A stretch of DNA of 64,000 nt. Source: a virus. Shown piece by piece: positions 1 to 42,346 of this stretch (position 1 is the stretch's first letter; every line of letters begins with the position of its first letter). Where the stretch lies: IMG/VR virus record IMGVR_UViG_3300049893_003686; one strand, 5' to 3'. Both the position numbers and the translations under genes were made by a program. The notes under the pieces are model-generated. The model worked only from the letters and a program-made list of their open reading frames with translations, made no database searches and was not told the origin of the DNA.

Positions 1-160
1 GGGCTTCTAGGGCTTATAGGGCTTCTAGGGTTTCTTGGGCTTCTGAGGCTTCTGTGGCTTCTTGGGTTTCTGGGGCTTATAGGGCTTCTTGGGTTTCTGT
101 GGTTTCTGGGTTTTCGGTGGTTTATAGAGGTTATGTGGTCTCTATAGTAAGAGGCGGTAG

Positions 161-412
161 ATGATTTCTTATGCTGTAGTTTATTTTTATTCTGGGGCTT
201 CTAGGGCTTCTGGGGCTTCTGGGTCTTATAGGGCTTCTGGGTCTTATAGGGCTTCTTGTGTTTCTAGGGCTTCTTGGATTTCTAGGGTTTCTGGGGTTTC
301 TGTGGCTTCTGTGGTTTCTGGGGCTTCTTGGGCTTCTTGGGCTTCTGGCGCTTCTAGGGCTTCTAGGGTTTCTGGGGTTTCTTGGGTTTCTGGAGTAAGG
401 GGTGGTAGATGA
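161..412 (+). CDS. Candidate small repeat protein (unit A1): N-terminal [10 protein letters not shown] followed by (A/V)-S-(G/R/W) triplets, ending RGGR
   Basis: AAGAGG lies 6 nt upstream of the ATG. The TGA stop overlaps the next ATG (ATGA). Low-complexity sequence, so coding status is unproven. Confidence 0.3.
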
Positions 413-678
413 TTTCTTATGCTGTAGTTTATTTGTATGGCGGGGCTTCTTGGGCCTCTAGGGCTTCTGGGGCTTCTAGGGCTTCTGGCGCTTCTGGGGC
501 TTCTGGGGCTTCTGGGGCTTCTGGGGCTTCTAGGGTTTCTAGGGTTTCTGGGACTTCTAGGGCTTCTTGGGCTTCTTGGGTTTCTAGGGCTTCTGGGGCT
601 TATAGGGTTTCTTGGGCTTCTGGGGCTTCTTGGGCTTCTGGAGGTTGTGCAACCTCTATAGTAAGGGGTAGTAGATGA
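409..678 (+). CDS. Candidate small repeat protein (unit A2)
   Basis: AAGGGG-N6-ATG and ATGA junctions at both ends; same (A/V)-S-(G/R/W) frame as unit A1. Confidence 0.3.
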
Positions 679-971
679 TTTCTTATGCTGTAGTTTATTT
701 TTATTCTGGGGCTTCTGGGGCTTCTTTGGTTTCTGGGGCTTCTAGGGCTTCTTGGATTTCTGGGGCTTCTAGGGCTTCTAGGGCTTCTAGGGCTTCTAGG
801 GCTTCTAGGATTTCTGAGGCTTCTGTGGCTTCTTGGGTTTCTGGGGCTTCTGGGGTTTCTGGGGCCTCTGGGGCCTCTGGGACTTCTAGGGTTTCTGGGG
901 CTTCTAGGGCTTCTTGGGTGTCTAGGGTTTCTTGGATTTCTAGGGCTTCTAGAGTAAGAGGCGGTAGATGA
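675..971 (+). CDS. Candidate small repeat protein (unit A3)
   Basis: Same architecture as units A1 and A2. The following copy (ATG 968) runs out of repeats and terminates after ~25 codons. Confidence 0.3.
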
Positions 972-1601
972 TTTCTTATGCTGTAGTTTATTTTTATGGT
1001 GAGGTTTCTGACGCTAACTCATATAGTAGGATATAAGGATCTATCTTTGACGCAGTAGCATCTACATCGGGATTACATCTTGATATAGCTGTTCGTGAGC
1101 ATAATTTTAATTTTCGCAAAGATCAATAGTTGCTAATAATATAGTTTATGATAAATAGCCTAAGTCTAATCCTTAATGTCTATCTATATAGAGATTTGCA
1201 ACAAACCTTATATCAAGGTCCGCAGTCAGTGGGTTATCGGTGTTTATGATTCTTCCCACTACATCATATAGACCTTATTACCAATATAGCTTAATTTAAA
1301 GCCCCGGATTGTAACTGGGAGATGCGAGCTTATATGCTCGCTATTGGTATTTGTAATTTACATATAATCGTATGCCAGTCGCACATACATCTGCTTATAG
1401 CACTTCGATATAATTATAGTTTATTCTGCTTAGAGGGCCATGTGATTACTTCATCACAGGCAGTCTAAAGCGATTTAAACCTTCTTGAAGAAAGCAATTA
1501 TATACACTAGAAAAATACCTAACCTAGATTAAGGAAGGGTAATTCCGTCAGAGGCAATTTTCTACTGCTATCGTATATGATTTTTATATCTCTACACTAG
1601 A

Positions 1602-1715
1602 AGGTTAATATCTTAGCGTCCAAGATATTAAATACTTTTGCGAAAAAACCGATCTATAAGATCACTGAGATCGCGGGGGAAAATATTCTTAGACAAATGC
1701 ATAGGGCGATCCGAG
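1602..1715 (+). repeat. Direct repeat copy 1 (114 bp) inside the gene-free core
   Basis: Matches 2172-2284 with 3 differences seen (two substitutions and one G indel in ..ATCACTGAGATCGCGGGGGA..). Contains the hairpin AATATCTT-agcgtcc-AAGATATT and the palindrome GATCT-ATA-AGATC. Confidence 0.95.
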
Positions 1716-2171
1716 TCTATACTTACTATTATTTCCTCAAGTAAATATATCCTAAGTACCCTATATAATTCTACGAGTTTATTCGACTAATGAGATTCTT
1801 CTTTTCGCGGCCAATAAATGGCACAGCCAGCTACTAGAAGCGCCTCATATTCGGTATAAACGCATTTTATAATAATAATTCTGAGCAACCCGCATAGGCC
1901 ATCTGGGCACCCATTTGGGTCTACTGTAATCATGTATATTTATAAGATTTTATCAAAGCCACTAGTGTGTGAAAAATATATTTGGGTTAATAAATTACTA
2001 ATCTACAATATCCTGCGGCAATTTTATAGTAGGCATCGCAGGTTGCAACATTTTCTATCTTGAAGATGGCGATAAGAATCCATTATATAGCGAGCGTTCT
2101 CACCAAGTGGAAATGTGTCACATCACATTAAGACAATCGTATATAGAGACATCCAGCAATAAATACCGCAT

Positions 2172-2284
2172 AGGTTAATATCTTAGCGTCCAAGATATTA
2201 AATACTTTTGCGAAAAAACCGATCTATAAGATAACCGAGATCGCGGGGAAAATATTCTTAGACAAATGCATAGGGCGATCCGAG
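2172..2284 (+). repeat. Direct repeat copy 2 (113 bp) inside the gene-free core
   Basis: See copy 1; same orientation, about 570 bp downstream. Confidence 0.95.
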
Positions 2285-2630
2285 GATTGGATCTAACACT
2301 ACTAGATCTATTCTAATACAATAGATAGTAACTTTAATTCTCTATATGTTAACCATACTCTAAACTTAAGAGTAATTCTAATCTACCAATATCATGCCTT
2401 TGCTATAAGATCTCCGATATCTATCAAAGCTATAAGTGCGTAATAATTTTTATTAGGTTAATACATTATTAACATTAATATAAATAACTGCCTAAATTCT
2501 ACACCCTAAGTCGCATTTCTTCAGATAATTAACTACACATTAACTGTGTGGGCAGCATACAGATGAGTTTGGTAACAGCTAACCCTAAAAACCTATACGA
2601 CATCATAATATAGCTATGGAGAGCGACGAG

Positions 2631-2846
2631 ATGATTTCTTATACGGCAATTTATTGGTATGGTGAAGATTCTAATACTTATGGGGTTTCTAGGGTTTCTG
2701 GGGATTATAGGGCTTCTTGGGCTTCTGGGACTTCTTGGGATTCTGCGGCTTCTAGTGTTTCTAGGGCTTCTAAGGTTTATAGGGCTTCTTGGGTTTCTGG
2801 GGTTTTTTGGGGTTATGTAATCTCCAGAGCAAGGAGTGGTCAATGA
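2631..2846 (+). CDS. Candidate small repeat protein (unit B1)
   Basis: The homologous ATGATTTCT start is at 2631; the ORF track extends it to an upstream ATG at 2616. ATGA junction at 2843-2846. Confidence 0.25.
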   Translation: MISYTAIYWYGEDSNTYGVSRVSGDYRASWASGTSWDSAASSVSRASKVYRASWVSGVFWGYVISRARSGQ

Positions 2847-3031
2847 TCTCTCATGCGACAGTTTATCTTTATGGTGGAGCTTATTGGACTTCTAAGGCTT
2901 CTAAGGCTTCTGGGATTTCTAAGGCCTCTTGGATTTCTAAGGCTTCTGGGGTTTCTAGGGTTTCTATGGCTTCTAGGGCTTCTGGGGGTTATGGGAGCTA
3001 TATAGTCTCCAGAGCAAGAGGTGGTAGATGA
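2843..3031 (+). CDS. Candidate small repeat protein (unit B2)
   Basis: AAGGAG lies 6 nt upstream of ATG 2843. ATGA junctions at both ends. Confidence 0.3.
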
Positions 3032-3279
3032 TTTCTCATGTGGGAGTTTATTTTTATTCTGTGGCTTCTTTGGTTTCTGGGGCTTCTTTGGTTTCTAGGG
3101 CCTCTAGGGCTTCTAGGGCTTCTAGGGCTTCTGTGGCTTCTGGGGCTTCTGGGGCTTTTAGGATTTCTGGGGTTTCTGGGGCTTCTTTGGTTTCTATGAC
3201 TTCTGGGGTTTCTGGGGCTTCTGGGGTTTCTGGGGCTTCTGGGGTTTCTGGGGTTTCTGGGGCAAGAGGTGGCAGATGA
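3028..3279 (+). CDS. Candidate small repeat protein (unit B3)
   Basis: AAGAGG-N6-ATG and ATGA junctions at both ends. Confidence 0.3.
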
Positions 3280-3551
3280 TTTCTCATGTGGGAGTTTATT
3301 TTTATTCTGGGGCTTCTTGGGTTTCTTGGGTTTCTGGGGTTTCTGTGACTTCTTGGGTTTCTAGGGTTTCTGGGGTTTCTGGGGTTTCTGTGACTTCTGG
3401 GGTTTCTGGGGTTTCTGGGGCTTCTGGGGTTTCTAGGGCTTCTAAGGCCTCTATGGTTTCTGGGGCAAGAGGTGGTAGATTATTTCTCATGTGGGAGTTT
3501 ATTGGTACGGCGAGGTTACTGGAGCGGACCTATTCGTATAGGAATAGATAA
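3276..3551 (+). CDS. Candidate small repeat protein (unit B4), reading through a decayed fifth linker
   Basis: AAGAGG-N6-ATG. The next junction is mutated (AGATTA instead of AGATGA), so the ORF continues to 3551. Confidence 0.25.
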
Positions 3552-3589
3552 TTTAAGTATAAAGCAATATACTTCACATAGAGAGTGAC

Positions 3590-4078
3590 ATGAATATCTT
3601 CCTAGTAGATACTGATCCAATTAAAGCAGCACAAGCGTTATGCGACAAACATTGTATCAAAATGATTCTAGAAACAGCACAATTGCTATCAACATCAGTA
3701 TACCTCACAAAAGGAGATTTAACAGGGCTGTATAAGCCAACCCATTTAGCACATCCATGTACTAAGTGGGCCTCAGAGTCTAAGATTAATTTTAATTGGC
3801 TAAAGAACCATGGATTAGGCCTTCTGTCGGAATATACGTTTCGATATCGAAAAGAGCATAAGTCAACACAGATAATATTAAAATGCACTAATGAATCTCT
3901 ACCAGACTTACCTGCTACAGATTTTGTTCAGGTAATGCCAGAGGTATATAGACGACCAGATCCTACAGAAGCATATAGGGCTTATTATAATAGTGCAAAG
4001 TATATGATGGCCACGTGGACAAGGCGGCAGCCTCCAGAATGGTGGTGCTCACAATTGTACGTAGAAAAGCACGAATAA
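3590..4078 (+). CDS. Conserved hypothetical protein
   Basis: 162-aa ORF and the first gene after the repeat region. The motifs DKHCIKMILETAQLLS and HPCTKWA recall a widespread phage/bacterial family that I cannot name with certainty. Confidence 0.7.
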   Translation: MNIFLVDTDPIKAAQALCDKHCIKMILETAQLLSTSVYLTKGDLTGLYKPTHLAHPCTKWASESKINFNWLKNHGLGLLSEYTFRYRKEHKSTQIILKCTNESLPDLPATDFVQVMPEVYRRPDPTEAYRAYYNSAKYMMATWTRRQPPEWWCSQLYVEKHE

Positions 4079-4114
4079 AGATAATCTATTATAAAATAAT
4101 ATTGAGGAGAATAG

Positions 4115-4477
4115 ATGCAGCCATCAGATATGATAATTAATCAAAAAGACTGCAGAGGGCTATTCGAGCAGCTGATCACATCGCAACCCTATGCTTTGAT
4201 AGATAAAATAAAGCTAGGTGAATTATCCAATGCGCGTATGGGAGAAGCGCTGGAGATAATAGGTCAGCTTAATTACGAATTGATACATGATATCTATGCC
4301 AATTTAGTAAATCATCATAACTCATTGGTACGTGGTGGCATAGTTTGCGGACTAGCCCTACATTCAGAAAATGTACAAGCTAGGCAATTACTTAAACAGA
4401 TGGCTGACTCAGATCCATCAGAGACAATACGATACGCTGCCGGACAAATATATTTCGAACATAGGTCAGTAAAATGA
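4115..4477 (+). CDS. Hypothetical protein, possibly HEAT-like repeats
   Basis: GAGGAG SD upstream. The helical-repeat-like C-terminus (..VQARQLLKQMADSDPSETIRYAAGQ..) is weak evidence. Confidence 0.6.
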   Translation: MQPSDMIINQKDCRGLFEQLITSQPYALIDKIKLGELSNARMGEALEIIGQLNYELIHDIYANLVNHHNSLVRGGIVCGLALHSENVQARQLLKQMADSDPSETIRYAAGQIYFEHRSVK

Positions 4478-4965
4478 TGCAGCATGTAGTTATCCATGAA
4501 GGGTCACTCCTTGATTCTAAGGATCAGTACTTGGCCCACCAGACAAACTGCATTTCAAAAAGAGCAGCACACCTAGCAGATGAGGTATTTGCTAAATATC
4601 CATATGCGAACGTTTATTCCAAACGCACATCTCAGGATGAACCAGGAACAATCATCATTAGCGGTAACGGCAACGATGAAAGATACGTCATCAATATGAT
4701 GGGGCAGGTCTATCCAGGCAAACCTAAGTATAGCGAGAGTGCCACTGATGGGTACAGAGCCCGATATAGATATTTTTTTCTATGCCTAAAAGCTATATCT
4801 AAAATAGATAATTTGCAAAGTATTGCATTTCCATGGCAGATAGGCTGTGGCGCAGCAGGTGGCAACTGGGAAGATTACTATAATTTACTAAATAAATTCG
4901 CGAAACATTTATCAGGTAAAGTAGAAGTAAAGATATATAGACTCCCAGATGATGATCATATATAA
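4474..4965 (+). CDS. Macro-domain protein (ADP-ribose binding/hydrolase, Poa1p/TARG1-like)
   Basis: ATGA overlap with the upstream gene. Motifs YLAHQTNC and IAFPWQIGCGAAGGNW resemble the macro-domain phosphate-binding loops. Confidence 0.65.
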   Translation: MMQHVVIHEGSLLDSKDQYLAHQTNCISKRAAHLADEVFAKYPYANVYSKRTSQDEPGTIIISGNGNDERYVINMMGQVYPGKPKYSESATDGYRARYRYFFLCLKAISKIDNLQSIAFPWQIGCGAAGGNWEDYYNLLNKFAKHLSGKVEVKIYRLPDDDHI

Positions 4966-4988
4966 TTTGTTATAACAAAGGTAAATTC

Positions 4989-5387
4989 ATGAAACAAATG
5001 GCAAGTCCTGGATGGAAGAACAAATCAGGTTACTATATCATAGAAAGAGAGGAATGGCGAGCAGAAATATATCCAAGCTCCAATAATTATGCCTGGCGTC
5101 TAGATCGTGCAGGATATACCCGATTCTCGGGAGAAGATAATAATTTAGAAGAGATTAAAAGAAATTTAGAATTAATACTAGGATATAGATTTCTTGTTAA
5201 AGAAGAGATTGTTATTGATAAATATTGCACATGTGGCGGATGCGCAAGATTTACTGGTCGATGGCAAGTACTTGACTGTATGGGCGAGGAAGAGCCGATC
5301 TTTCAGAGTGAGGATGATGCATTAGCTTGGATAGCCAATCAAGACATGAAGCACGAAATAGCTAATCTGGCACACAAAATGCAATAA
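4989..5387 (+). CDS. Hypothetical protein
   Basis: 132-aa ORF with AAGG upstream of the ATG and no recognised motif. Confidence 0.65.
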   Translation: MKQMASPGWKNKSGYYIIEREEWRAEIYPSSNNYAWRLDRAGYTRFSGEDNNLEEIKRNLELILGYRFLVKEEIVIDKYCTCGGCARFTGRWQVLDCMGEEEPIFQSEDDALAWIANQDMKHEIANLAHKMQ

Positions 5388-5457
5388 TCTGTACATGTGA
5401 TACTCATATTAGCTTAACTTAATATTTGCATATCAGGATATATGTGGAGAACATAAC

Positions 5458-5697
5458 ATGTTATTTACGATAGGAAATAGAGAATTTGAATTTGCTAGAC
5501 AAACTTCTGAAATAGGCAAGCTCTTCTGTGGTATGTATAATACCGAGACTGATGCGTATATAGGGGTACATTTCTTTGTATCAAAACCGACTCATAAGTA
5601 TTGGGGATTTCAGCAAGATGAGTTGGGCGGAACTTTAATGAAGCAATTTGGATTAGGTCCAATAGCATTATTTGTGTGGGTGGCATATGGCGAATAA
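5458..5697 (+). CDS. Hypothetical protein
   Basis: 79-aa ORF with GGAGAA upstream. Confidence 0.55.
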   Translation: MLFTIGNREFEFARQTSEIGKLFCGMYNTETDAYIGVHFFVSKPTHKYWGFQQDELGGTLMKQFGLGPIALFVWVAYGE

Positions 5698-5863
5698 AAA
5701 TAGCTTGAGAGTAGCACATAAAGGGTTGGCCTATCATGAAATGACTTCAGATGTTTATGATGGTCCAAGATCTATAAGTGACCGAAAATGGTGGAAGCGA
5801 TATGCCGCGAAGCGCAAAAGACGCACTGAAGATAATGAAATTGTAGAACAGATTGGCAAGTAA
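5687..5863 (+). CDS. Hypothetical small basic protein
   Basis: ATG at 5687 overlaps the upstream gene by 11 nt; the track's alternative start is 5672. An 8-bp hairpin (GTCTCTTA-atac-TAAGAGAC, 5877-5896) follows. Confidence 0.45.
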   Translation: MANKNSLRVAHKGLAYHEMTSDVYDGPRSISDRKWWKRYAAKRKRRTEDNEIVEQIGK

Positions 5864-6133
5864 GACCTGTACCACAAGTCTCTTAATACTAAGAGACGTA
5901 TGATAGAGAAATTAGGATGGATATAAATAAACGAAATTTAGAGGATGCTGGCGATCACATAGAAGCACACTTTTTGCTCAGAGCGTGGTTATCACGAACT
6001 ATGGTAAGTATTATATATGCTTAGGCTATACTGACAGTTAATTATAGTAATTATTATTGCCTTTACTTACCTCGTATAACGCATCATCAGAGATAATACG
6101 CGGTAACTGAAATCTTATTACTAGAGATTTTAT

Positions 6134-7243
6134 ATGCATGATGAAATCAATGTTGGAGTTGTAATCGGAAGATTCCAACCTCTACACATCTGTCACCTCT
6201 CAGAGGCGATCTTGCCCGCCCTAGATGAATCAGACACATTAATCATTCTTCTCGGATCATCGCACAGACCAAGTACACCTAAAAATCCATGGACGGACTC
6301 TGATAGGGCGGAGATGATTCATCTTGGCCTAAAAGACGCAGGGATGACCGTAGAGGCATATGGAAATTGGTTATTAAAGATAGGTGCGAGTGACACTACT
6401 CAAAAGACGGTATATATTGTTCCAATAAGAGACTTTGCTTATTCAGATATTCAGTGGCAGATGCAAGTGCAGGAGAAAGTAAGAGAGATCGTTTCATCCT
6501 GCTCAAATCTCGATAGCAAATATGAATCTGCAAAAATTAATCTATTTGGAGTAGATCGTGATGATACCACATTCTACCTTAAATTATTTCCTCAATGGAT
6601 AGATAAAACAACTAAGCGGGATAAGAGCTCCGATCAAGTTAAGGGCACAATGTGCAGAGAGCTGATTTTTGCTAGCGGCGCAAAAGGTCATGGGGAGTGG
6701 GGAAAGTACTTGTCACCCCAGGTATCAGAATTCATATTAAATTGGTGTAACTCAATATCATTTTCATCACTTAAAGAAGAGTTTGATTTTCTCAAACGAT
6801 ATAAGGCAGACTTATCTGGATATAAATATCCAATTATATTTCAAACAGTAGATAATATTATTCTATATAAGGGGCACGTCTTCTTGCTAAATAGGAGGAG
6901 TTTCCCTGGAAAAGGATTGCTATCTTTACCGGGCGGGTTTATAGATTCCAGTCTAACTCTACTTCAGAGCGCGCTATCTATAGCCAAAGAGAAAAGTAAA
7001 CTTAATCTTAAATTAGACTGGCTTGTAGCAAGCAAGACTTTCGATTATCCCGGACGCTCACTAAGAGGCAGGACTATCACTACAGCATTTCTCTGGAAAT
7101 TACCCGAGACAATGAATGTAATAGTTGCAGGGGCAAATAAAGAACACTGGTATCAGCTATGCGATATCATGAAAATGAGTGATTTCTTATATGAAGATCA
7201 CTATGATATCATAATTGATATGCTACAGCTTAGCAAGACATAA
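6134..7243 (+). CDS. Bifunctional-type nicotinamide-nucleotide adenylyltransferase (NMNAT) with a C-terminal Nudix-like domain
   Basis: The N-terminal GRFQPLHICH matches the cytidylyltransferase (H/T)xGH motif of NadR/NadM-type NMNAT. The C-terminal LPGGFIDSS..LSIAKEKSKL is a degenerate Nudix box that has lost the REx2EE acidic residues. Confidence 0.8.
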   Translation: MHDEINVGVVIGRFQPLHICHLSEAILPALDESDTLIILLGSSHRPSTPKNPWTDSDRAEMIHLGLKDAGMTVEAYGNWLLKIGASDTTQKTVYIVPIRDFAYSDIQWQMQVQEKVREIVSSCSNLDSKYESAKINLFGVDRDDTTFYLKLFPQWIDKTTKRDKSSDQVKGTMCRELIFASGAKGHGEWGKYLSPQVSEFILNWCNSISFSSLKEEFDFLKRYKADLSGYKYPIIFQTVDNIILYKGHVFLLNRRSFPGKGLLSLPGGFIDSSLTLLQSALSIAKEKSKLNLKLDWLVASKTFDYPGRSLRGRTITTAFLWKLPETMNVIVAGANKEHWYQLCDIMKMSDFLYEDHYDIIIDMLQLSKT

Positions 7244-7286
7244 GTCGATATACGACGCATATAACTTATTTTCGGAGGAATATACC

Positions 7287-8768
7287 ATGGAATTTTCAAA
7301 ATTTCTACATACTGACAGTTATAAATTAGCTCACTTCGAGCAATATCCAGCAGCCAAGAAGATGGTTGCTTATGGTGAATTTCGCAAGCCGTATCCTAAT
7401 ATTAAAGATGAGCGAATTGTTGTATACGGCATACAGTATTTAGTAGATAAATTTTTAAACAAACAGTGGACGGTAGAAGAACTTAATGCCGCATCACAAT
7501 TTGCCAGCAAACATAATGCTGGTTTAAAAGAATACCCATTTCCTCGGAAATTATTTACCGACATGATTGCTGAAAATAACGGATACTTTCCAGTTAAGGT
7601 AGAGGCTGTTCCGGACGGAACAGTGGTATACCCACATGTGCCAGTGTATCAGATTACAGCAGAGGGGAAGTATTCGGGTCTGGTAACATACATCGAAAGT
7701 TTTCTGTCGCACTTATGGTATTCAACTACTGTAGCAACTCTTTCACGACATACTAAAACACTTATCAAAAATGCGTTCGATCTTACTGTAGATGATAATA
7801 TGAGGTGGTTACTTGGGAGTCGATTGCATGATTTTGGTTATCGAGGCTGTGCGTCTGATGAGCAGGCTATGATCGGAGGTGCCGCACACCTACTTAATTT
7901 TGATGGTACAGATACGATGCTAGCTGCTGCATATGCACACTATCAAAATAATGGAGAAGAATTTGCACAAAGTATTCCAGCTACAGAGCATTCGGTAATG
8001 ACATCATGGCCATCAGAAGTTGATGCAGTTCGAAATATGATCCACCACTACGGAGATGGTGTATTTGCCTGTGTAGCTGATAGCTATGACTATAAGCACT
8101 TTCTTCATCATGTATTGCCAGCAGTAGCAGCTGATGTGCAGGCTAAGGGCGGCACAATGGTAATTAGACCAGACTCTGGCGATCCACTTAAATCAGTGAT
8201 AGACGGACTCTATGCTTGTCAAAGATATTTTGGAATATCCTATAATAAAAAGGGATTTAAGGTACTGAACAATAGCGCAATAATTCAAGGTGACGGCATT
8301 AATATAGAGATAGTTGATAACATACTTACTGAGGTTATTAATAATGGATTCAGCGCACAGAACGTAGCCTTCGGCATGGGCGCCGGCCTATTACATAAAC
8401 ATAATAGAGATACTATGAGTTTTGCCACTAAGTTATCATATATTGAATATGCAGATGGGACAAGTAGGAACATTATGAAGGCACCTAAAACGGATCCGGA
8501 GAAGTACTCACTACCTGGTATACTTAAGGTAATTAATGATGACCTATTGAAGGTTGGAACAGAAGAAGATCGTGGTAATAACTTGCTGATAACAGTGTAT
8601 GATGGCAGACCAGTAGATTTTAAAGAGAAATTTTCTAACATCCGCGCTAAGGTAGAACATCAATGGAATCTCTTACCGCCTAAAGTAGAAAACCTATTTA
8701 CAGATAAGTTAAAGATGAAGATAAATGAGACAATCTTTAACTTAAGAAATAGCACGTCCAAATCCTAA
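7287..8768 (+). CDS. nadV: Nicotinamide phosphoribosyltransferase (NAMPT)
   Basis: The N-terminal HTDSYKLAHFEQYP matches the TDSYK signature. CGGAGGAA SD at 7273-7280. The length (~493 aa) and the GYRG and GDG blocks fit NAMPT. The track start at 7215 is probably an upstream extension. Confidence 0.9.
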   Translation: MEFSKFLHTDSYKLAHFEQYPAAKKMVAYGEFRKPYPNIKDERIVVYGIQYLVDKFLNKQWTVEELNAASQFASKHNAGLKEYPFPRKLFTDMIAENNGYFPVKVEAVPDGTVVYPHVPVYQITAEGKYSGLVTYIESFLSHLWYSTTVATLSRHTKTLIKNAFDLTVDDNMRWLLGSRLHDFGYRGCASDEQAMIGGAAHLLNFDGTDTMLAAAYAHYQNNGEEFAQSIPATEHSVMTSWPSEVDAVRNMIHHYGDGVFACVADSYDYKHFLHHVLPAVAADVQAKGGTMVIRPDSGDPLKSVIDGLYACQRYFGISYNKKGFKVLNNSAIIQGDGINIEIVDNILTEVINNGFSAQNVAFGMGAGLLHKHNRDTMSFATKLSYIEYADGTSRNIMKAPKTDPEKYSLPGILKVINDDLLKVGTEEDRGNNLLITVYDGRPVDFKEKFSNIRAKVEHQWNLLPPKVENLFTDKLKMKINETIFNLRNSTSKS

Positions 8769-8812
8769 AATAGTATTTAGGAATAAATTTCACCATCTCA
8801 ATAAAAAATCTT

Positions 8813-9016
8813 ATGATAACAAGATTAAAACAAAGTCTGAATTTGATTTTAAAAAAACTATCACAGGAGCATAAATCTTCTTTAGATTATGATATTCCTG
8901 AGTTAAATACAATATGCTGGAAATCCCCAGCGTATCCAACTCAAATTCATAAAGAAATACAGTTATTTGATAATGATATAATTAAATGGGAGAGGTATTT
9001 CCCAAGAGTGGAGTAG
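8813..9016 (+). CDS. Hypothetical protein
   Basis: 67-aa ORF only. Confidence 0.5.
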   Translation: MITRLKQSLNLILKKLSQEHKSSLDYDIPELNTICWKSPAYPTQIHKEIQLFDNDIIKWERYFPRVE

Positions 9017-9023
9017 AATTAAG

Positions 9024-9149
9024 ATGGCTAATATAATATATAGATTATTGCTGATTATGGCAGTACCAGCATTAATATTTGGATTATTCACTAAATGCTG
9101 GGCACCACTCAATATCTATAGAAAGTGTATACTTGTGAATTTTGAATAA
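9024..9149 (+). CDS. Possible 41-aa membrane peptide
   Basis: ATG 9024, stop 9147-9149. Hydrophobic core LLLIMAVPALIFGLF. Below the ORF-track cutoff. Confidence 0.3.
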   Translation: MANIIYRLLLIMAVPALIFGLFTKCWAPLNIYRKCILVNFE

Positions 9150-9168
9150 AGTTATTAAGGATTAGTAT

Positions 9169-9417
9169 ATGGAAAGAACGCAAATACAAGAAAGGCTCAG
9201 GTTATTAACGGAACGACAGACACTTTTAAGAGAATATTTGATGCGTCCACTGCAAGTGGCTAAAGATAAATCAAAATTATCAATAGTTGATATTAAGAAG
9301 CATCAGGTCTTACCACAACACCTATGGAAAGAAATGCAACTGCAATATTTTAAAACCTCAAAGGAAATTGAAACACTTACTGCTCAAATTGTCGATCACG
9401 GTCAAAATAAAATATGA
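9169..9417 (+). CDS. Hypothetical protein (coiled-coil-like)
   Basis: 82-aa ORF with an ATGA overlap to the next gene. Confidence 0.55.
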   Translation: MERTQIQERLRLLTERQTLLREYLMRPLQVAKDKSKLSIVDIKKHQVLPQHLWKEMQLQYFKTSKEIETLTAQIVDHGQNKI

Positions 9418-9809
9418 TACCGACTACGCTAAATACTTTAGAACAAGCACTTACAACTGGATTTTGGGAAGACCTTTTAGAGGTTTTACTTAAGCTTAAA
9501 GCTGATAAACAAGAATTGCCTAAGCAATTTAGAGGAGTGAAGAATATATATAAGGCTAAGGACCTCAAAGGGCTCTGTTTTGATCGATTAGGTGATGATC
9601 CAGATTGTGAATGGATTTTAGATGATAGACTATGGGGAGTTTTTCAAAAGCATAAAATTACAGGATACTTCGCCCATCTCGATGATAGCACGACTACATA
9701 TATTGGAACTTACTTCATGGAAGGATATGCATATAAAGCAGATGTGCTTCATAAAATGGATATGAATATTGTAGTGCGAGCGGCAGAGGAATTAAAACCT
9801 AAGGTATAA
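9414..9809 (+). CDS. Hypothetical protein
   Basis: 131-aa ORF, translationally coupled to the upstream gene. Confidence 0.6.
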   Translation: MIPTTLNTLEQALTTGFWEDLLEVLLKLKADKQELPKQFRGVKNIYKAKDLKGLCFDRLGDDPDCEWILDDRLWGVFQKHKITGYFAHLDDSTTTYIGTYFMEGYAYKADVLHKMDMNIVVRAAEELKPKV

Positions 9810-9816
9810 TTCATAC

Positions 9817-10827
9817 TTGCGGGAAGCAAAGACACTGATGCTAATTCCATGGAAAACAATACGCTCATTGCTATTTCGTCTAGATGCGGAAGATGCACAT
9901 AGTTTAGCAATTAAATATTTAAAAATATTATCCAAAGCACTCCCAGCTACATCACCAAATATTAGCTCCCCTGTAGAAGTATTCGGCGTACAATTTCCTA
10001 ACCCTTTAGGCTTAGCAGCTGGATTTGATAAAGACGGTGAAGCCATACTTGCCTGGCAAAGACTTGGCTTCGGATTTGTTGAAGCAGGGACAGTAACCGC
10101 ACATCCTCAACAAGGAAATCCTCGTCCGCGTCTAACTAGGATACCAGAGCACTATGCGCTTAAAAATTGTATGGGCTTCAATAATGCCGGAGCCAAGGCC
10201 TTAGGAATTAAGCTGCAAAAGTTACGCGACAAAGAAATAGTAAATATTCCAATAGGAATTAATATTGGAAAATCAAAAATAGTATCAAATGAAGAGGTAA
10301 TACAAGACTATTGCAAGTCGTTCTCATATATAAAAGACGTAGCTGATTATGTCGCAATAAATATCTCAAGCCCAAACACTCCAAGCTTACGAGATCTTCA
10401 GACTGCTAATATGATTAAAAAAATCATGGATGCTTTAATGGAATTAAATCGCAAGCAGGTACCGATACTTATCAAACTTTCTCCAGATTTGGATGATGAT
10501 ACATTAATAAGCTGTGCCATAGGAGCTATTGACTGTGGAGCCCAAGGTCTTATATTAGCAAATACATCTACCTCTACAGGACTGATGCCTAACATGAGCG
10601 GAGGAGTTTCCGGTCAACCTATACGAGAGCGAGCGAATTCCACAATTAAACTCATTAGGACTGCCGTTAGTGATAAGATTCCATTAATTGGAGTTGGAGG
10701 AATAATTGATCATAATGATGCCAACGAGAGGATTAAATCAGGAGCTACGCTTATACAGGCATACACTGGATTTGTTTATGGTGGACCATCGTTTGCAAAA
10801 GACATCATTCGACAATTAGATATATGA
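9817..10827 (+). CDS. pyrD: Dihydroorotate dehydrogenase (quinone), class 2
   Basis: Motifs FPNPLGLAAGFDKDGEA, GFGFVEAGTVT, GNPRPRL and MGFNNAG. The start may be TTG 9817 or ATG 9838. Confidence 0.9.
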   Translation: MREAKTLMLIPWKTIRSLLFRLDAEDAHSLAIKYLKILSKALPATSPNISSPVEVFGVQFPNPLGLAAGFDKDGEAILAWQRLGFGFVEAGTVTAHPQQGNPRPRLTRIPEHYALKNCMGFNNAGAKALGIKLQKLRDKEIVNIPIGINIGKSKIVSNEEVIQDYCKSFSYIKDVADYVAINISSPNTPSLRDLQTANMIKKIMDALMELNRKQVPILIKLSPDLDDDTLISCAIGAIDCGAQGLILANTSTSTGLMPNMSGGVSGQPIRERANSTIKLIRTAVSDKIPLIGVGGIIDHNDANERIKSGATLIQAYTGFVYGGPSFAKDIIRQLDI

Positions 10828-10828
10828 A

Positions 10829-11035
10829 ATGCAGTTCATAGATAAAAATACATACATTGTAATGCTATGGAATATGATACATGGCTGGATACCAGTCACA
10901 AACCCTTTAACTCAAGAGCTAGCAGAAGCCGCATGGCATAGTTTAACGTGTTCAGGCACACTAAATTCCAAATACGAAGACGGCAATTACTTTAAGATCT
11001 TCATACATAGCACTACAGATACCATACAGGATTAA
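10829..11035 (+). CDS. Hypothetical protein
   Basis: 68-aa ORF abutting pyrD. Confidence 0.5.
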   Translation: MQFIDKNTYIVMLWNMIHGWIPVTNPLTQELAEAAWHSLTCSGTLNSKYEDGNYFKIFIHSTTDTIQD

Positions 11036-11039
11036 CAAA

Positions 11040-12137
11040 ATGAAGCTACCGACATTATTTTCTCGTACCTCCAGTGGGGCTATCCAAATATGGGAAGTTG
11101 AAGTAATTGATAATAAACATCGCGTAATATCAGGACAGATTGATGGGCAAAAAGTTCAGTCAGAATGGACTGTGTGCGTATCAAAAAATATCGGAAAAAG
11201 CAATGAGACATCTCCAGCTCAGCAGGCCGAACTAGAAGCAGGAGCTAAGTGGAAGAAGAAATTAGAGTCCGGCTATAAGGAGTCTATAGCCGATATAGAT
11301 CAGGTAGGTTTTATTGAGCCAATGCTAGCCAAATCATTTAGTGATTATGAACACGAGATCAAATATCCTGTGTTTAGTCAGCCTAAGTATGACGGGATTA
11401 GGTGTGTAGCTACAAAAAATGGCCTCAGTAGTAGAGGTGGCAAAAGATTCTCTAGCGTACCTCATATAATGGAGGCACTACGACCAATATTTGATAAATT
11501 CCCGCAGCTAGCTTTTGACGGCGAACTATACTGCGATAAATTTGCTAATGATTTTAATCAAATATGCTCTCTCGTAAAGAAGTCAAAGCCATCTACTCAA
11601 GACCTTAAAAATAGTGCTGAAGCAATAGAGTATTGGGTATATGATATTCCCAATGATGAGATGAACATATTTTCAGACCGATATGAGCTACTAGCCACTT
11701 TATTAAAAGATGCGCCAAAGTGCATTAGGATTGTTCCCACACGAATAGTCTATGATAAGTCCCAATTAGATAACGAATATTCTTCATACCTAGAGTTAGG
11801 ATATGAAGGACAGATGGTTCGACTTAATGGCCCTTATGAGAATAAGAGAAGCAAGTTTCTCTTAAAAAGAAAAGAATTTGTTGATAATGAATATCTGATA
11901 GTTGATATAATTGAGGGCGACGGCAACAAGAGTAATATGGCAGCCTCTATGCTATTGCGAGACTCTACTAGTAAAGAATTTAATTCAAATATTAAAGGTA
12001 ATAGACAATATCTACGCAAACTCTTAATAGACAAGAATAACCTTTTAGGCAAACTGGCAACAGTGAAATATTTTAATTTAACGCCTGATGGTATACCTAG
12101 ATTCCCATATGTGATTGCCATAAGAGATTATGAGTAG
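11040..12137 (+). CDS. ATP-dependent DNA ligase (T7-like size)
   Basis: Motif I KxDG is present as SQPKYDGIRC. The 365-aa length and the EGQMVR and LLKRK blocks resemble adenylation and OB-domain motifs. Confidence 0.9.
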   Translation: MKLPTLFSRTSSGAIQIWEVEVIDNKHRVISGQIDGQKVQSEWTVCVSKNIGKSNETSPAQQAELEAGAKWKKKLESGYKESIADIDQVGFIEPMLAKSFSDYEHEIKYPVFSQPKYDGIRCVATKNGLSSRGGKRFSSVPHIMEALRPIFDKFPQLAFDGELYCDKFANDFNQICSLVKKSKPSTQDLKNSAEAIEYWVYDIPNDEMNIFSDRYELLATLLKDAPKCIRIVPTRIVYDKSQLDNEYSSYLELGYEGQMVRLNGPYENKRSKFLLKRKEFVDNEYLIVDIIEGDGNKSNMAASMLLRDSTSKEFNSNIKGNRQYLRKLLIDKNNLLGKLATVKYFNLTPDGIPRFPYVIAIRDYE

Positions 12138-12161
12138 AGATATTACAATATAGGAGCGGCA

Positions 12162-13163
12162 GTGACTTTAAATAGTGATTGGCAAATGGCCAAAGTGACA
12201 GACCCTAATATAATAAATTTGGCTGTAGGGGAACCATACTTCCTGCAAAATGCATTGCGACAAAGTAATATTCTAGATAAATGTACTGTACGACTATCTG
12301 GTTTAGAGTACCCACCTTTTGGAGGAGAACCTAAATTAATTGAAGCTATCAAACGGTTGCCTAACTTCGGTGACTATAAGCATGTAGTAATTACTAATGG
12401 GGCAAAGCAGGCCATCTCAGCAGCACTGTATGCTGCAACTGAAGTTAGGCATGCCAAGCGACTCGTACATAGTGCCCCATACTGGCCGTCGTACCCAACT
12501 CTAGCATATCAATGTGGACTTCAGTTCTCTGAAATAGGGAGTGGGTTAGATACGGTAGTTGCCATAACATCGCCAAATAATCCAGATGGAATGCAGGTAT
12601 CGGAACAGAAGTGTTATATTTGGGACGCAGCATATGCGTCTCCTCTATATGGATATAAGGGGGATCATCCGACTGCTGAAGTAGCTATAGTAAGCCTAGC
12701 TAAGTCTTTAGGCATATCAGGGTTACGTATAGGAGCAGCACTTACAAATGATGATGTGCTGGCAAAGTACATGGCATATTTCGTTGAAATATCAACTAGC
12801 GGAGTATCTACAACAGCACAAGAGCAGTGTACAATGCTCATCAAGCATATACTTTCAGATGGAAGTGACGAATTCGCTTCAGTTATTGAGCGCGCTAGAA
12901 GCACACTATCGAACAATCGCAGCTTATTTCGTCAAGTATTATTACCGATTTGTGATGAGGCCAAATTTTCTCACGGTATGTTTGCCTGGTTTAAGCCCAA
13001 TAATAAAGTTGAATTCTCAAATATACTTGAGCATGCAGGAGTTAGGGTAGTAGATGGAGGGGCCTGCGGCGTTCAGGGATGGTTTAGAATGAGTTTAGGA
13101 CTGGATATAAATGCATTTACTGCAGCGATAGAAGCGATATCAACACATATATCAGATCAATAA
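12162..13163 (+). CDS. PLP-dependent aminotransferase, class I/II
   Basis: NLAVGEP, ITSPNNPDG, and SLAKSLGISGLRIGA (the PLP-lysine motif S-x-x-K..G-x-R-x-G). GTG start at 12162 or ATG at 12186. Confidence 0.8.
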   Translation: MTLNSDWQMAKVTDPNIINLAVGEPYFLQNALRQSNILDKCTVRLSGLEYPPFGGEPKLIEAIKRLPNFGDYKHVVITNGAKQAISAALYAATEVRHAKRLVHSAPYWPSYPTLAYQCGLQFSEIGSGLDTVVAITSPNNPDGMQVSEQKCYIWDAAYASPLYGYKGDHPTAEVAIVSLAKSLGISGLRIGAALTNDDVLAKYMAYFVEISTSGVSTTAQEQCTMLIKHILSDGSDEFASVIERARSTLSNNRSLFRQVLLPICDEAKFSHGMFAWFKPNNKVEFSNILEHAGVRVVDGGACGVQGWFRMSLGLDINAFTAAIEAISTHISDQ

Positions 13164-13186
13164 AATTCATAATATTAGGAGATAAT

Positions 13187-13396
13187 ATGCCGTTATTTGA
13201 TTACAAATGTAAGTTATGTAATAGTAAAACAGAGTATCTACTCAAAAATAGCGATGAGATTCCCTATATATGCGAGAATTGTGGGGCAGTATTATCATTA
13301 GTTAAAGAGATATCTAGAAGCACATTTGCATTAAAGGGCTCTGGATGGTATAAGGACCTCTATGGAAATAAATCAGAGACGTCATCAAGTAATTAA
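13187..13396 (+). CDS. FmdB-family zinc-ribbon protein
   Basis: MPLFDYKCKLC..CENCG follows the CxxC..CxxC pattern typical of this family. AGGAG SD. Confidence 0.7.
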   Translation: MPLFDYKCKLCNSKTEYLLKNSDEIPYICENCGAVLSLVKEISRSTFALKGSGWYKDLYGNKSETSSSN

Positions 13397-13557
13397 TTAC
13401 ACCAGTGTAGCTAAGCATACATATTAAGATTGATTACTGCATAAGGAAATATGCAGGCTATGCAATCACAAAAGCTGGTTACCAACGAAGCTTTCAGCTC
13501 ACAATATAATAGATGAGTAAAGTATAAAGATTCACTCTCTTCAAGGAAAGATTACAA

Positions 13558-14136
13558 ATGACTATATGGTTCACCAGCGACCTTCATTTCGGACACGCAA
13601 ATATCATCAAATACTGCAAAAGACCCTATTCTAATGTTGATGATATGAATGAAGCTCTAATAGATAATTGGAATAGCATAGTGCAGAAGGATGATATTGT
13701 ATATGTCCTAGGAGATTTTGCATACGGAAGGCACTTTACACCAGATAAAGCAGCGCGTGTGCTACAGAGATTATCAGGGATTAAAGTTCTAATTGCCGGA
13801 AACCATGATGAAGACAACTTAAGATCTTCACAATTTCGCTCTAAGTTCGAAGAGATACATTCATTATTTGAGCTAAAAATTCCACCAAAGCGTGGTGAAC
13901 GACACGGCACTATGATTGTAATGTGCCATTACCCTATGCGCAAATGGAATCAGTCACATAGAGGATCTATTCATCTGTTCGGACATGAGCATGGGTCTTC
14001 GCCTGAAGATAAGGCATCTCGTAGTATGGATGTTGGAGTAGATTGCCATAATTATTACCCAATTTCTTTTGAAGAAGTTTTGGAAAAAATGGAAACTAAG
14101 ACCTGGAAGCCCAAACGAAATAATAATGAGGAATAG
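13558..14136 (+). CDS. Calcineurin-like metallophosphoesterase
   Basis: SDLHFGH, LGDF, GNHD and GHEH motifs in the canonical order. Confidence 0.8.
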   Translation: MTIWFTSDLHFGHANIIKYCKRPYSNVDDMNEALIDNWNSIVQKDDIVYVLGDFAYGRHFTPDKAARVLQRLSGIKVLIAGNHDEDNLRSSQFRSKFEEIHSLFELKIPPKRGERHGTMIVMCHYPMRKWNQSHRGSIHLFGHEHGSSPEDKASRSMDVGVDCHNYYPISFEEVLEKMETKTWKPKRNNNEE

Positions 14137-17278: not shown

Positions 17279-18409
17279 ATGAAATTCCCTATTATCGAGC
17301 ACACAATTTTACTTACAATAGCAGGCTCTAGGAGTTACGGTATGCACAAAAGTGACTCCGATATAGACCTAAAAGGGATAGCCATCCCTCCTATAGATTC
17401 CTATATTGGAGTTTTACCAAATTTCGAACAAGTAGAGTCATCAGAAGCAATGATGGTATATTATCCTCTACTATCGAATGATGAGAAAGATATTTCAGAT
17501 AAATATAAGCTTGAAGGGGTTATATATGATTTGCGTAAATTCATACGACTGGCATCTGGTTCAAATCCCAATATCTTAGATGTATTATTTTGCGATGATG
17601 AGCACGTCAGGTTCTCATCAAAGGCAGGAGATATCATAAGGGCTAGCAGAGATCTATTCATATCTGCACAGGCTAAGCATACATATTCTGGTTATGCAAC
17701 GGCGCAATTTAAGCGCATTAAGACTCATAGGGGATATCTGCTAAATGCTCCAAAGACAGAGCCAGACAGGAGTGAGTTCGGTCTATCAAAGGACCACTGC
17801 ATTCCACGTGCCCAGGTAGAGGCATCTTTATCAGAGATTAATAAGAAACTTGATGAGTGGGAATTAGATCTTAGCTCTATAGATTCTGAGTCTGACAGAA
17901 TGTCGATATTAAATAATATTGCACAAGTACTATCAGAAATAATGTCAACAACTGACTCTAAATGGAAGAGCTCCGCTAGAAACATCGGCTATGGCGATAA
18001 CCTTATTGAAATTCTAGACAAGGAGCGTAGATTTAGACAGGCTAAGAACGAATGGGATAAATATCAATATTGGAAGAAGGGGCGAAACTCAGCACGAGCG
18101 AAACTAGAAGAAAAATACGGGTATGATACCAAGCACGCTTCTCACTTAGTTAGATTAATGAGGATGTGTTATGAGATTTTAGTAGATGGCAAGGTCAATG
18201 TCAATCGCAAGAAAATAGATGCCGATGAATTAGTTGCGATTCGAGATGGCTCATGGAGCTACGATAAGCTAGAGGAATTCTTTATAACGATGGATAATAA
18301 ATGCAGCGAGCTGTATAATAGTAAGTCATATAGCATTCCACATAGGGTAGATATGAGTGCGATAAATGCATTGTGCGTACAACTCATCTCCGATAAGTAC
18401 AAAATGTGA
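17279..18409 (+). CDS. Pol-beta-superfamily nucleotidyltransferase, RlaP-like (RNA-repair-associated family)
   Basis: The N-terminal GSRSYGMHKSDSDIDLKG matches the G-S-x-x-Y-G..S-D-x-D minimal NTase motif of that family, as I recall it. Confidence 0.6.
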   Translation: MKFPIIEHTILLTIAGSRSYGMHKSDSDIDLKGIAIPPIDSYIGVLPNFEQVESSEAMMVYYPLLSNDEKDISDKYKLEGVIYDLRKFIRLASGSNPNILDVLFCDDEHVRFSSKAGDIIRASRDLFISAQAKHTYSGYATAQFKRIKTHRGYLLNAPKTEPDRSEFGLSKDHCIPRAQVEASLSEINKKLDEWELDLSSIDSESDRMSILNNIAQVLSEIMSTTDSKWKSSARNIGYGDNLIEILDKERRFRQAKNEWDKYQYWKKGRNSARAKLEEKYGYDTKHASHLVRLMRMCYEILVDGKVNVNRKKIDADELVAIRDGSWSYDKLEEFFITMDNKCSELYNSKSYSIPHRVDMSAINALCVQLISDKYKM

Positions 18410-21607: not shown

Positions 21608-21655
21608 GTTATCTATTTAGATTCATGATATGAAAAGTTAGATCAGCTACCAAAT

Positions 21656-21785
21656 AGCGACATGGTGAAGTGGTATCACGTGAGAACAAACATCTCGGTT
21701 CTTTATAACCTTGCCAGATCTATGGCCGAATAAGAATCGTTATCTTAGTCAATCTTAAATCTCCTGTTCGATTCAGGATGTCGCT
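21656..21785 (+). tRNA. tRNA-like gene with canonical acceptor, D and T arms but about 60 nt of extra sequence in the anticodon/variable region; anticodon unassigned
   Basis: Acceptor AGCGACA/TGTCGCT, then T8-G9. D arm GTGA-AGTGGTA-TCAC with G18-G19. T arm TCCTG-TTCGATT-CAGGA. The 82 nt between 21680 and 21761 replace the expected ~23 nt. Confidence 0.5.
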
Positions 21786-21806
21786 GTCTTTTCAGGATTA
21801 GATATA

Positions 21807-25708: not shown

Positions 25709-25792
25709 GGGCCAGTAGACGCGCTCCGCTCATAACGGAGTAAGGGTAATTTGGTTCTGAAAATGTGGGTTCAAGTCCCACCTGGCCCACCA
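25709..25792 (+). tRNA. Atypical tRNA-like element, copy 1 (CAU anticodon loop, no canonical D arm, 24-nt variable region, CCA encoded)
   Basis: Acceptor GGGCCAG/CTGGCCC. Hairpin CTCCG-CTCATAA-CGGAG. T arm GTGGG-TTCAAGT-CCCAC. Discriminator A followed by CCA. Only 8 nt (TAGACGCG) lie in the D-arm position. Identical to 42249..42332. Confidence 0.5.
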
Positions 25793-25936
25793 TTTACACG
25801 TACTCAATTCCTAATCTGACGTACGGTAATAGAATGATTAGGATCTCACTCTTCGGGATTTAAGAGCAACCCTTTAGCCTTAGGCGTTGTAGTACGGAGA
25901 GAAAAGGCCATCTTCTTTTAAGGAGAGCGTCAGCTA

Positions 25937-26560
25937 ATGCTTAGAGCTGAAGGTAAGCTGCCTAGAGATGTATACGTAGCTTGTTCTGGCGGCGTAGACA
26001 GTATGGCAGTGCTTGCGTTTTTAATGCGCCGAGAAGTTAAGCCACAAGTAGTCTACTTTAATCATAGGACTGATCATTCAGAAAAAGCAGAAGAACATGT
26101 ACGTACATTCTGCACTAAGCACGCCCTCAATCTTACCATAGGAACTATTCTTCGTGATCGCCTTAGCCGTGAGTCTAAAGAGGAATTTTGGCGAAACGAG
26201 AGATATAAATTCCTGCACGGACTATCTCTACCAGTAATTACAGCGCATAACTTAGACGATTGTATTGAAACATGGATCTTCTCTTCATTGCATGGAGAAG
26301 GAAAAATGATTCCATACAGAAATCGAAATGTAATTAGACCATTTAGACAAACACATAAGGCAGAGTTTATCAGATGGTGCACGAAGAATAACATCCCATG
26401 GATAGAGGACGAGTCAAATAAGAATATATTATTTGCACGCAATAGAATCAGACATGCACTTATGCCAGAAGTTCTAAAAATCAATCCTGGAATTTCTAAA
26501 GTAATTAGAAAGAAAATCTTGGCAGAAAGTGATATGCATAGGCTTTCCCCGCCACTCTAA
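25937..26560 (+). CDS. tilS: tRNA(Ile)-lysidine synthetase-like PP-loop ATPase (N-terminal catalytic domain only)
   Basis: PP-loop ACSGGVDSMAV, then ..VYFNHRTDHSEKAEEHVRTFC..L.. as in TilS. AAGGAGAG SD. At 207 aa it lacks the long TilS C-terminal domains. Confidence 0.7.
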   Translation: MLRAEGKLPRDVYVACSGGVDSMAVLAFLMRREVKPQVVYFNHRTDHSEKAEEHVRTFCTKHALNLTIGTILRDRLSRESKEEFWRNERYKFLHGLSLPVITAHNLDDCIETWIFSSLHGEGKMIPYRNRNVIRPFRQTHKAEFIRWCTKNNIPWIEDESNKNILFARNRIRHALMPEVLKINPGISKVIRKKILAESDMHRLSPPL

Positions 26561-37484: not shown

Positions 37485-37506
37485 ATTAATAACTATATAC
37501 TGATAT

Positions 37507-42332: not shown

Positions 42333-42346
42333 TTTTAACATCTTAG

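Follow-up and report, generated by a model that had tools for sequence, protein, structure and literature searches.

Y RNAs of bacteria and phages have come to light chiefly through searches with the YrlA model next to the gene of their protein partner, Ro60, and the authors of the survey noted that Y RNAs of the hairpin type escape such searches (PMC4201824). Published bacterial and phage Y RNAs are encoded no more than 4 kb from Ro60, and the survey used a position within about 4 kb on the same strand as a criterion; Xenopus Ro60 contacts the motif GGUCCGA, whose bacterial equivalent is GNCGAA (PMC4201824). A 64,000-nucleotide stretch of viral DNA, IMG/VR record IMGVR_UViG_3300049893_003686 (hereafter the window, meaning the whole stretch), carries a candidate Y RNA of the hairpin type in a different setting. 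Close to the left end of the window, a 1.6-kb non-coding core (1001-2615) lies between two arrays of small open reading frames (ORFs) and contains, on the + strand, a 62-nt candidate Y RNA (mini-Y, 1215-1276), a tRNA-like cloverleaf (1280-1349) and two nearly identical units of 113 nt. With a probability of roughly 0.6, it is an island of small-RNA genes in a large phage, whose genome also encodes a set of RNA quality-control and repair genes.

The candidate Y RNA (1215-1276, +) consists of AAGGUCCGCAGUCAGUGGGUUAUC, a 16-nt U-rich loop and CCCACUACAUCAUAUAGACCUU. Its lower stem is AAGGUC/GACCUU and its upper stem AGUGGG/CCCACU, with a GGUCCG motif, GGGUUAUC and a small U-rich loop; AAGGUCCGCA...GGGUUAUC and CCCACU...GACCUU fold together as a hairpin, so that both the end stem and the Ro60-contact motif of a Y RNA are present. 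The GGUCCG of the candidate agrees with the contact motif GGUCCGA (PMC4201824). In a permissive Rfam scan of the core (lax filter), the stem-bulge RNA model RF01656 matches 1211-1279 (+) with 30.7 bits (E = 7e-4 for the region and 0.027 for the whole window), and the Y_RNA model RF00019 matches the same site weakly, with 17.1 bits. Nematode stem-bulge RNAs are homologues of Y RNAs. Three further covariance models (R1, R2 and R3), built without the window sequence and only from mini-Ys lying just upstream of Ro60 in other phage contigs, find their best match in the whole window, on both strands, at 1215-1276 (+), with 11.6, 18.0 and 19.3 bits; the runner-up match for the phage mini-Y models scores about 10 bits. 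The hairpin is also identical to a hairpin of one of these phage loci (L007) at 44 of 62 positions (about 70%).

The genome that carries the candidate encodes a full-length Ro60 orthologue (37853-39460, +), the presumed partner of the mini-Y, with a TROVE domain (E = 4e-39) and a Ro60 vWA domain (E = 5e-62). Because five models agree on one 62-nt site, 44 of 62 positions are shared with the L007 hairpin and Ro60 is present in the same genome, 1215-1276 is with good confidence a Ro60-partner RNA, as judged from sequence and predicted fold. It would be a Y RNA of the YrlB/Yrn2 type that binds the phage Ro60; its role, as in published work on bacterial Y RNAs, would be to gate the protein or to link it to an exoribonuclease.

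The candidate can be compared with the Y RNAs of other phages through ten viral contigs whose Ro60 is 35-41% identical to that of the window. At least eight of these loci carry two to six hairpins of the mini-Y design, all within a few hundred bases on the upstream side of Ro60 and on its strand. RF01656 scores hairpins directly upstream of Ro60 at 32.2 bits in L007 and 28.6 bits in L003, similar to the score of the window candidate. Of the 27 matches of this phage mini-Y family at E <=1 in the relatives, 26 share the strand of Ro60 and precede it by no more than about 800 nt; the exception, in L011, is the weakest. In the alignment of the family, which was fitted to the covariance model and is thereby favoured towards pairing, 13 of 14 base pairs have changed on both sides, and 93.6% of cells are paired, versus 34-49% when the partners are slid. 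The arrays occupy approximately positions 4200-4940 of their loci (L003, L004, L005/L006, L007, L008/L009, L010 and L012; 672-816 in L009); many of their hairpins measure 60-80 nt and are missed by the YrlA model, and one is YrlA-like.

The window candidate has the hairpin architecture of these phage arrays (L003, L004, L005/6, L007, L008, L010, L012) as well as their GGUUAUC box. It differs from them in that it is a single, distant copy, whereas the arrays hold two to six copies abutting the Ro60 start codon. Their stem is GC-rich (GGGCCGAA...GCCC, GGGCC/GCCC with CGAA), whereas the window hairpin has GGUC/GACC with CGCA and is nearer to the metazoan form. With metazoan Y RNAs and nematode stem-bulge RNAs (RF00019, RF01656) the candidate shares the two strands of the Ro60-binding module, GGUCCG-N5-AGUGGGUUAUC on the 5' side and CCCACU-N-GACC on the 3' side; it differs from them in lacking the large internal loop and the other loop modules, and in its phage origin. 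A search for the Y motif in IMG/VR and a metagenome collection gave only chance matches in coding sequences, plus one canonical eukaryote-type Y RNA, CAGGTCCGGAGTAAGTGGGTTATC...CCCACTTCAGACACATGACCTG, at 913-1050 of the soil metagenome contig Ga0164306_10098062 (L055; GC content 30%). This RNA, found by the same 5' pattern, has the 3' strand of the candidate too.

Among described bacterial Y RNAs, the closest are those of the hairpin type, YrlB of S. Typhimurium and M. smegmatis and Yrn2 of D. radiodurans (PMC4201824). The candidate resembles them in its long hairpin formed by the 5' and 3' ends, in carrying its Ro60-contact motif close to the 5' end (GGUCCG, where known Y RNAs have GNCGAA or GGUCCGA), in a small pyrimidine-rich loop (10 of its 16 nt are U or C) and in the presence of a Ro60 gene on the same strand of the same genome. 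It differs in lying 36.6 kb from Ro60 rather than 2-4 kb, in being joined directly to a separate cloverleaf, in scoring below threshold in Rfam and in being known from sequence alone.

Next to its own Ro60 gene, the window has no Y-like or YrlA match. Another Y-like site considered and set aside is a weak motif, UGGCCGAAUAAGAAUCGUUAUC at 21726, with the possible partner CGAUUC; it lies in 21721-21790 (+), within the intergenic stretch 21608-21806, does not fold as a Y stem (z = 0.26) and is reported by none of the models.

The tRNA-like cloverleaf (1280-1349, +; 70 nt) begins 3 nt 3' of the mini-Y hairpin. In the lax-filter scan, the Rfam tRNA model matches it with 37.4 bits (E = 8e-6, threshold 29). 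The cloverleaf is the minimum-free-energy fold of the sequence, with z = -4.1 against shuffled controls, and has a 7-bp acceptor stem and a 5-bp anticodon stem. Its anticodon loop, AUUGUAA (anticodon UGU), has U33 and A37; thus, the acceptor stem and the anticodon loop are those of a tRNA. The tandem layout of mini-Y and tRNA-like element recurs, since L004 also has mini-Y hairpins followed about 10 nt downstream by a tRNA-like element. In that locus three hairpins are interleaved with tRNA-like elements, one of which is reported by Rfam, and the anticodon region of these elements is replaced by an apparent inserted Y-type stem. A second tRNA in the core, at 2252-2325, was rejected: ARAGORN needs a lowered threshold to call it, and nothing equivalent follows the first 113-nt unit.

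The cloverleaf invites comparison with YrlA (RF02553), in which a Ro60-binding stem and a tRNA-like module likewise occur at one locus, binding being predicted here. In the window, however, the hairpin of the Y stem is closed, with the cloverleaf on its 3' side instead of nested, and the cloverleaf keeps a normal anticodon arm with degenerate D and T loops. RF02553 has no match in the core or near Ro60, even at E <=10. RNase P cleaves the YrlA of M. smegmatis, so that tRNA-type processing of a Y RNA has a precedent (PMC4201824). The cloverleaf may be read in two ways: it may provide an RNase P site that cuts out the 3' end of the Y RNA, or it may be a tRNA-like effector module, nested inside the Y stem in YrlA and placed in tandem here.

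The remainder of the core contains two pairs of repeats. The earlier note, made from the sequence of this region, had described direct repeats at 1602-1715 (114 nt; copy A) and 2172-2284 (113 nt; copy B) with three differences, and this holds: the + strand copies differ by two substitutions (1663 C/A, 1666 T/C) and one single-base indel in a G run, and are 97% identical. The window contains no further copy of the unit. The unit is probably not coding, because the single-base indel would break any frame across it. Copy A has four GATC sites, a GATCGC...GCGATC stem and a hairpin at 1605-1631; the latter had been given an 8-bp stem, and its stem is in fact a perfect 10 bp, TTAATATCTT-agcgtcc-AAGATATTAA. 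The palindrome GATCT-ATA-AGATC, previously ascribed to both copies, is perfect in copy A, and copy B reads GATCT-ATA-AGATA. The second pair consists of the diverged paralogues C (1945-2026, +) and D (2415-2501, +), the latter in the most AT-rich part of the core; their pairwise alignment has 63 identical positions over 82 and 87 nt (about 75% identity, z = 7.3 versus shuffles). The sequence GGTTAATA occurs four times in the window, always on the + strand of the core: at the starts of A and B, and inside C (1985) and D (2456). A single four-member family of A, B, C and D was nevertheless rejected, as apart from GGTTAATA the similarity between the two pairs is not significant (z = 0-0.7).

The order of the repeats along the core, A (1602), C (1945), B (2172) and D (2415), is interleaved and therefore fits one old tandem duplication of about 570 bp. 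Outside the units and C/D, the remainder of the duplicated segment is no longer alignable. At the divergence of C and D (28%), three or fewer differences in the unit would have a probability of the order of 1e-12. The near identity of the units had been put down to either recent duplication or selection. Because the C/D pair of the same apparent duplication has diverged by about a quarter, recency does not account for it; the comparison instead favours purifying selection, or gene conversion, confined to a discrete unit. What the unit does is a more tentative matter. We consider it possible, if somewhat doubtful, that the 113-nt units are RNA genes, the main alternative being a protein-binding role at the DNA level. 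Pairing of the unit with the start regions of the arrays or with other small RNAs produced no duplex that beats shuffles.

Promoter-like boxes recur upstream of several of these elements. The box TATATAGAGA, with ATC before it, lies at 1185-1194 (+), 21 nt upstream of the mini-Y, and ATC(G)TATATAGAGA has exactly two copies in the window, this one and another at 2140, upstream of unit B; the box there, ATCGTATATAGAGA (2136-2149, +), is 23 nt from the unit. Unit A is preceded at 20 nt by ACTGCTATCGTATATGAT (1564-1581, +). The combination of ACTGCTATC followed by GTAKATRAT is found at only two sites in the window; one precedes unit A by 20 nt, the other a tRNA-like gene at 25709 by 19 nt. A box GATATAAT stands at 1406-1413, near a long imperfect hairpin at 1427-1472 (+). 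Taken together, the shared boxes suggest that units A and B are each transcribed from the + strand into a small RNA, as the mini-Y would be. On this view the further small + strand transcripts, made with shared promoter-like boxes, would comprise both 113-nt units and the hairpin at 1427-1472, and perhaps also C and D. A general promoter motif derived from intergenic 8-mers and a loose TATC...TAKAT pattern were both discarded as too unspecific.

The tRNA-like gene at 25709 is itself duplicated, as the 113-nt units are: identical 87-nt copies with sharp edges lie at 25709-25795 and 42249-42335 (+). They have acceptor, anticodon (CAU) and T arms, an encoded CCA and a 24-nt variable region, with no proper D arm; the Rfam tRNA model scores 42.1 bits and ARAGORN gives no call. 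The first copy adjoins a tRNA-Arg(TCT) and lies just upstream of a TilS-like PP-loop gene (25937-26560), and the second is 2.8 kb downstream of Ro60. The 87-nt gene and the PP-loop gene together hint at a phage tRNA-Ile(CAU)/lysidine synthetase pair.

The core (1001-2615) is non-coding. As the earlier note stated, it contains no ORF of 60 aa or more on either strand except the tail of a minus-strand ORF (2529-2843). The best dicodon coding score in its six frames is at most 0.32, versus 0.46 for the 5th percentile of the window's genes, and no core ORF of 20 aa or more has a plausible ribosome binding site, the sole one listed overlapping the tRNA-like fold. In rough gene calling, the core falls into two non-coding pieces, of 666 and 738 nt, that no other non-coding stretch of the window equals in length, the runner-up being 513 nt; they are split only by a 50-aa TTG ORF, to which the ribosome-binding-site check gives no support. 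A coding or pseudogene reading was dropped on the low dicodon scores and the lack of any ORF led by a ribosome binding site.

The description of the core as hairpin-rich was overstated, as only three structures beat shuffled controls. In a sliding fold scan, excess structure is confined to 1260-1380, 1380-1500 and the unit hairpins; since most of 1700-2600 folds at a z-score of about 0 on both strands, the core as a whole is not rich in hairpins. The hairpin noted at 1437-1461 is real, but it belongs to the larger hairpin at 1427-1472 (about 16 bp, loop UACUUC, z = -3.9), and the one proposed at 2012-2042 is no better than chance (z = -1.4). The short repeat ACACTAGAA does occur at 1504 and 1594, as reported, and has a further copy on the minus strand at 2750; three matches compare with 0.53 expected, and three of 100 shuffles reach three. 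Among the functions that had been proposed for the core, non-coding RNA genes gain real support from the Y RNA candidate and the adjoining cloverleaf (1215-1349), together with Ro60 in the genome.

Several observations weigh against a small-RNA island. For the Y RNA candidate, the RF01656 and RF00019 matches (30.7 and 17.1 bits) are both under the 38-bit gathering score, and the matches of R1, R2 and R3 have E values of 2, 0.21 and 0.1 over the whole window and are not significant alone. The candidate lies 36,577 nt upstream of Ro60, on the same strand, and thus outside the 4 kb that hold for published Y RNAs; in our reading of the fold, the helix above its GGUC/GACC stem lacks the G-U and A-U pairs of vertebrates. 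The cloverleaf has a non-canonical D loop (AAUUUA), a non-canonical 6-nt T loop (UUAUAU) and no encoded CCA. Default ARAGORN makes no call there, Thr-tgt appearing only at a lowered threshold, and the cloverleaf is not reported by the default Rfam scan or by the whole-window scan. Its T arm scores as terminator-like, so that it could be a plain terminator hairpin. Overall, shuffled sequences fold as well as the 113-nt units (z = -0.7 and -1.3), which match no Rfam family and show no clear terminator. The promoter-like boxes were spotted post hoc by inspection and are leads rather than proof.

A further point on the same side is that no search route found a related genome. Neither the core nor the window has relatives at the DNA level among 50,697 phage records (blastn and megablast), IMG/VR holds no exact 27-mer of the 113-nt unit, and nhmmer finds no match for the core in the retrieved loci (814 kb). 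For the pyrimidine-dimer glycosylase gene next to the core, the nearest homologues reach no more than 54% (P0003) and 52% identity (P0002), and their loci have no common gene order with the window. Exact-protein look-ups of the small core ORFs and of one left-array ORF returned nothing. The only contigs identical to the window are Logan contigs, probably from the same sample (SRR35532387 is a run with such contigs), which confirm 2255-3229 and 3405-14078 and leave out the junction of left array and core near 1000; one of them begins inside unit B, at 2255.

Other explanations of the core draw on some of the same features. It could be a replication origin, with the repeats, the inverted repeat, the GATC cluster and the AT-rich tract serving as DNA elements for initiator binding and unwinding, a role that could coexist with RNA genes. 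The region is gene-free, has two direct-repeat pairs and a perfect 10-bp inverted repeat, and contains 12 GATC sites in 1.6 kb (four of them inside unit A) versus 3.6 per kb across the window; it is also AT-rich at 2300-2550 (GC content 24-31%), though this is not specific to origins. However, the core has no TTATCCACA-like DnaA box even with one mismatch allowed, its repeats (113 nt, two copies, 570 bp apart) are unlike iterons, no initiator gene was recognised among the neighbouring genes examined, and about 135 nt are already accounted for by RNA elements. Cumulative GC skew climbs steadily over the 64 kb without a turning point, the left side lying beyond the contig end, and is uninformative because the core sits within about 1 kb of that end. 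An origin is improbable in our estimation. About equally improbable is a role in transcription control, in which the units and boxes would be promoters or operators for the right array and the downstream + strand genes, and the palindromes repressor sites. In its favour are 18 sigma-70-like matches in 1-4200 versus 9.1 expected, the concentration of TATATAG-type boxes in the core (5 of 15 matches with at most one mismatch), a perfect palindrome of the kind typical of operators and the + orientation of all downstream genes. Operators and promoters, however, rarely need 113 nt kept at 97% with sharp edges, the palindrome is absent from other promoters in the window, and the box upstream of unit A also precedes a tRNA-like gene, which points to short RNA products. 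A promoter or operator role is in part compatible with RNA genes.

That the core marks a genome terminus or packaging site, with array, core and array forming a physical end or concatemer junction, like T7-like ends in which short repeat arrays flank a terminal repeat, is extremely improbable. The source JGI contig measures 65,057 bp, so that one of its ends lies about 1 kb or less from the arrays and the core; repeat arrays stand on both sides of the core, and the genes to its right all point away from it. Short-read assemblies nevertheless break at repeats anyway, and repeats alone explain such breaks here, since the ends of the identical Logan contigs fall within the arrays and within the 113-nt unit. 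Moreover, the arrays look coding, with ribosome binding sites and ATGA overlaps, and no terminase, portal or capsid gene was recognised in the window. For neither the origin nor the packaging option of the earlier note was positive support found. A decaying spacer, in which leftover DNA would show coincidental Y and tRNA matches and the units would owe their identity to recent functionless gene conversion, would suit the modest Y and tRNA scores, the lack of excess structure over most of the core and the truncation of the last array ORF at the core's left edge. Yet five models put their best or only match on the same 62 nt, a cloverleaf with z = -4 abuts the Y candidate and Ro60 is encoded in the same genome; conversion limited to exactly 113 nt would still imply a discrete unit, and the conservation pattern of that unit makes junk unlikely. 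A spacer of this kind is thus quite improbable, and a small-RNA gene island remains the preferred explanation of the core.

Genes for RNA handling are numerous in the window. Besides Ro60, the window encodes an RlaP-type RNA-repair nucleotidyltransferase (17279-18409), a Thg1-like enzyme (30858-31628), two metallophosphoesterases and a DHH phosphoesterase (13558-14136, 33938-34588 and 36404-37300), and this RNA repair and quality-control set is scattered over 20 kb. Also present are a TilS-like PP-loop protein, a ClpB-like ATPase, NAMPT and an NMN-adenylyltransferase-like gene. In a 206-nt gap about 370 nt upstream of Ro60 lies an 83-nt near-perfect hairpin (37407-37489; about 30 bp), whose Rfam matches are unrelated microRNA models far under their thresholds. 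Nearly all genes of the window are on the + strand and its GC content is about 38%, as part of a large phage genome; the nearest match of its DNA ligase is in a 595-kb uncultured phage (50% identity). No structural or packaging genes were recognised in the window.

The arrays that flank the core (left, 1-1000; right, 2616-3551; both +) consist of tandem small ORFs of one family, with four units on the right. Each ORF, of 62-98 aa, has a start of the form MIS[YH]..VY.Y, a ribosome binding site and an ATGA stop-start overlap; the final copy of the left array is truncated to 22 aa at the left edge of the core (968-1036). The 9-nt repeats of the arrays encode x-[A/V]-S triplets, and a second open frame gives (G-L-L)n, most differences between the repeats being synonymous in it. 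The array ORFs have no homologue among 5.8 billion proteins. Another tandem repeat lies at 29140-29282, in ORF 28478-30802, with periods of 12, 18 and 30 nt (96% matches at period 30); it accounts for a G/E-rich stretch of the encoded protein, which has 774 aa and an OmpA domain at its C terminus.

The tRNA region of T4, with its species 1 and 2 RNAs, is a phage cluster of tRNA and small stable RNA genes. The core resembles such clusters as a compact, one-strand non-coding block with several small structured RNA genes in a large phage, and differs from them in having one tRNA-like fold and in that the 113-nt units and C/D have no known counterpart. A more far-reaching proposal is that the Y hairpin and the cloverleaf form one bipartite RNA, either a tandem YrlA-like RNA or a Y RNA cut by RNase P at its 3' end, and that the 113-nt units, perhaps with C and D, are a new phage small-RNA family that works with Ro60, RlaP and Thg1. 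In this combined form the proposal is speculative and rather unlikely to hold in full. Such unit RNAs could be, for example, further Ro60 ligands or decoys for host RNA-targeting defences.

From this locus it seems that large phages can encode a Ro60 partner tens of kilobases away from the Ro60 gene, in a small-RNA island and joined to a tRNA-like fold. If this is true, surveys of phage RNA repair would need to search beyond the neighbourhood of Ro60, and the 62-nt hairpin would offer a compact RNA for studying how Ro60 recognises its ligands. Kept while its surroundings diverged, the 113-nt unit makes a clean candidate for a phage element of a new kind, whether RNA or DNA.

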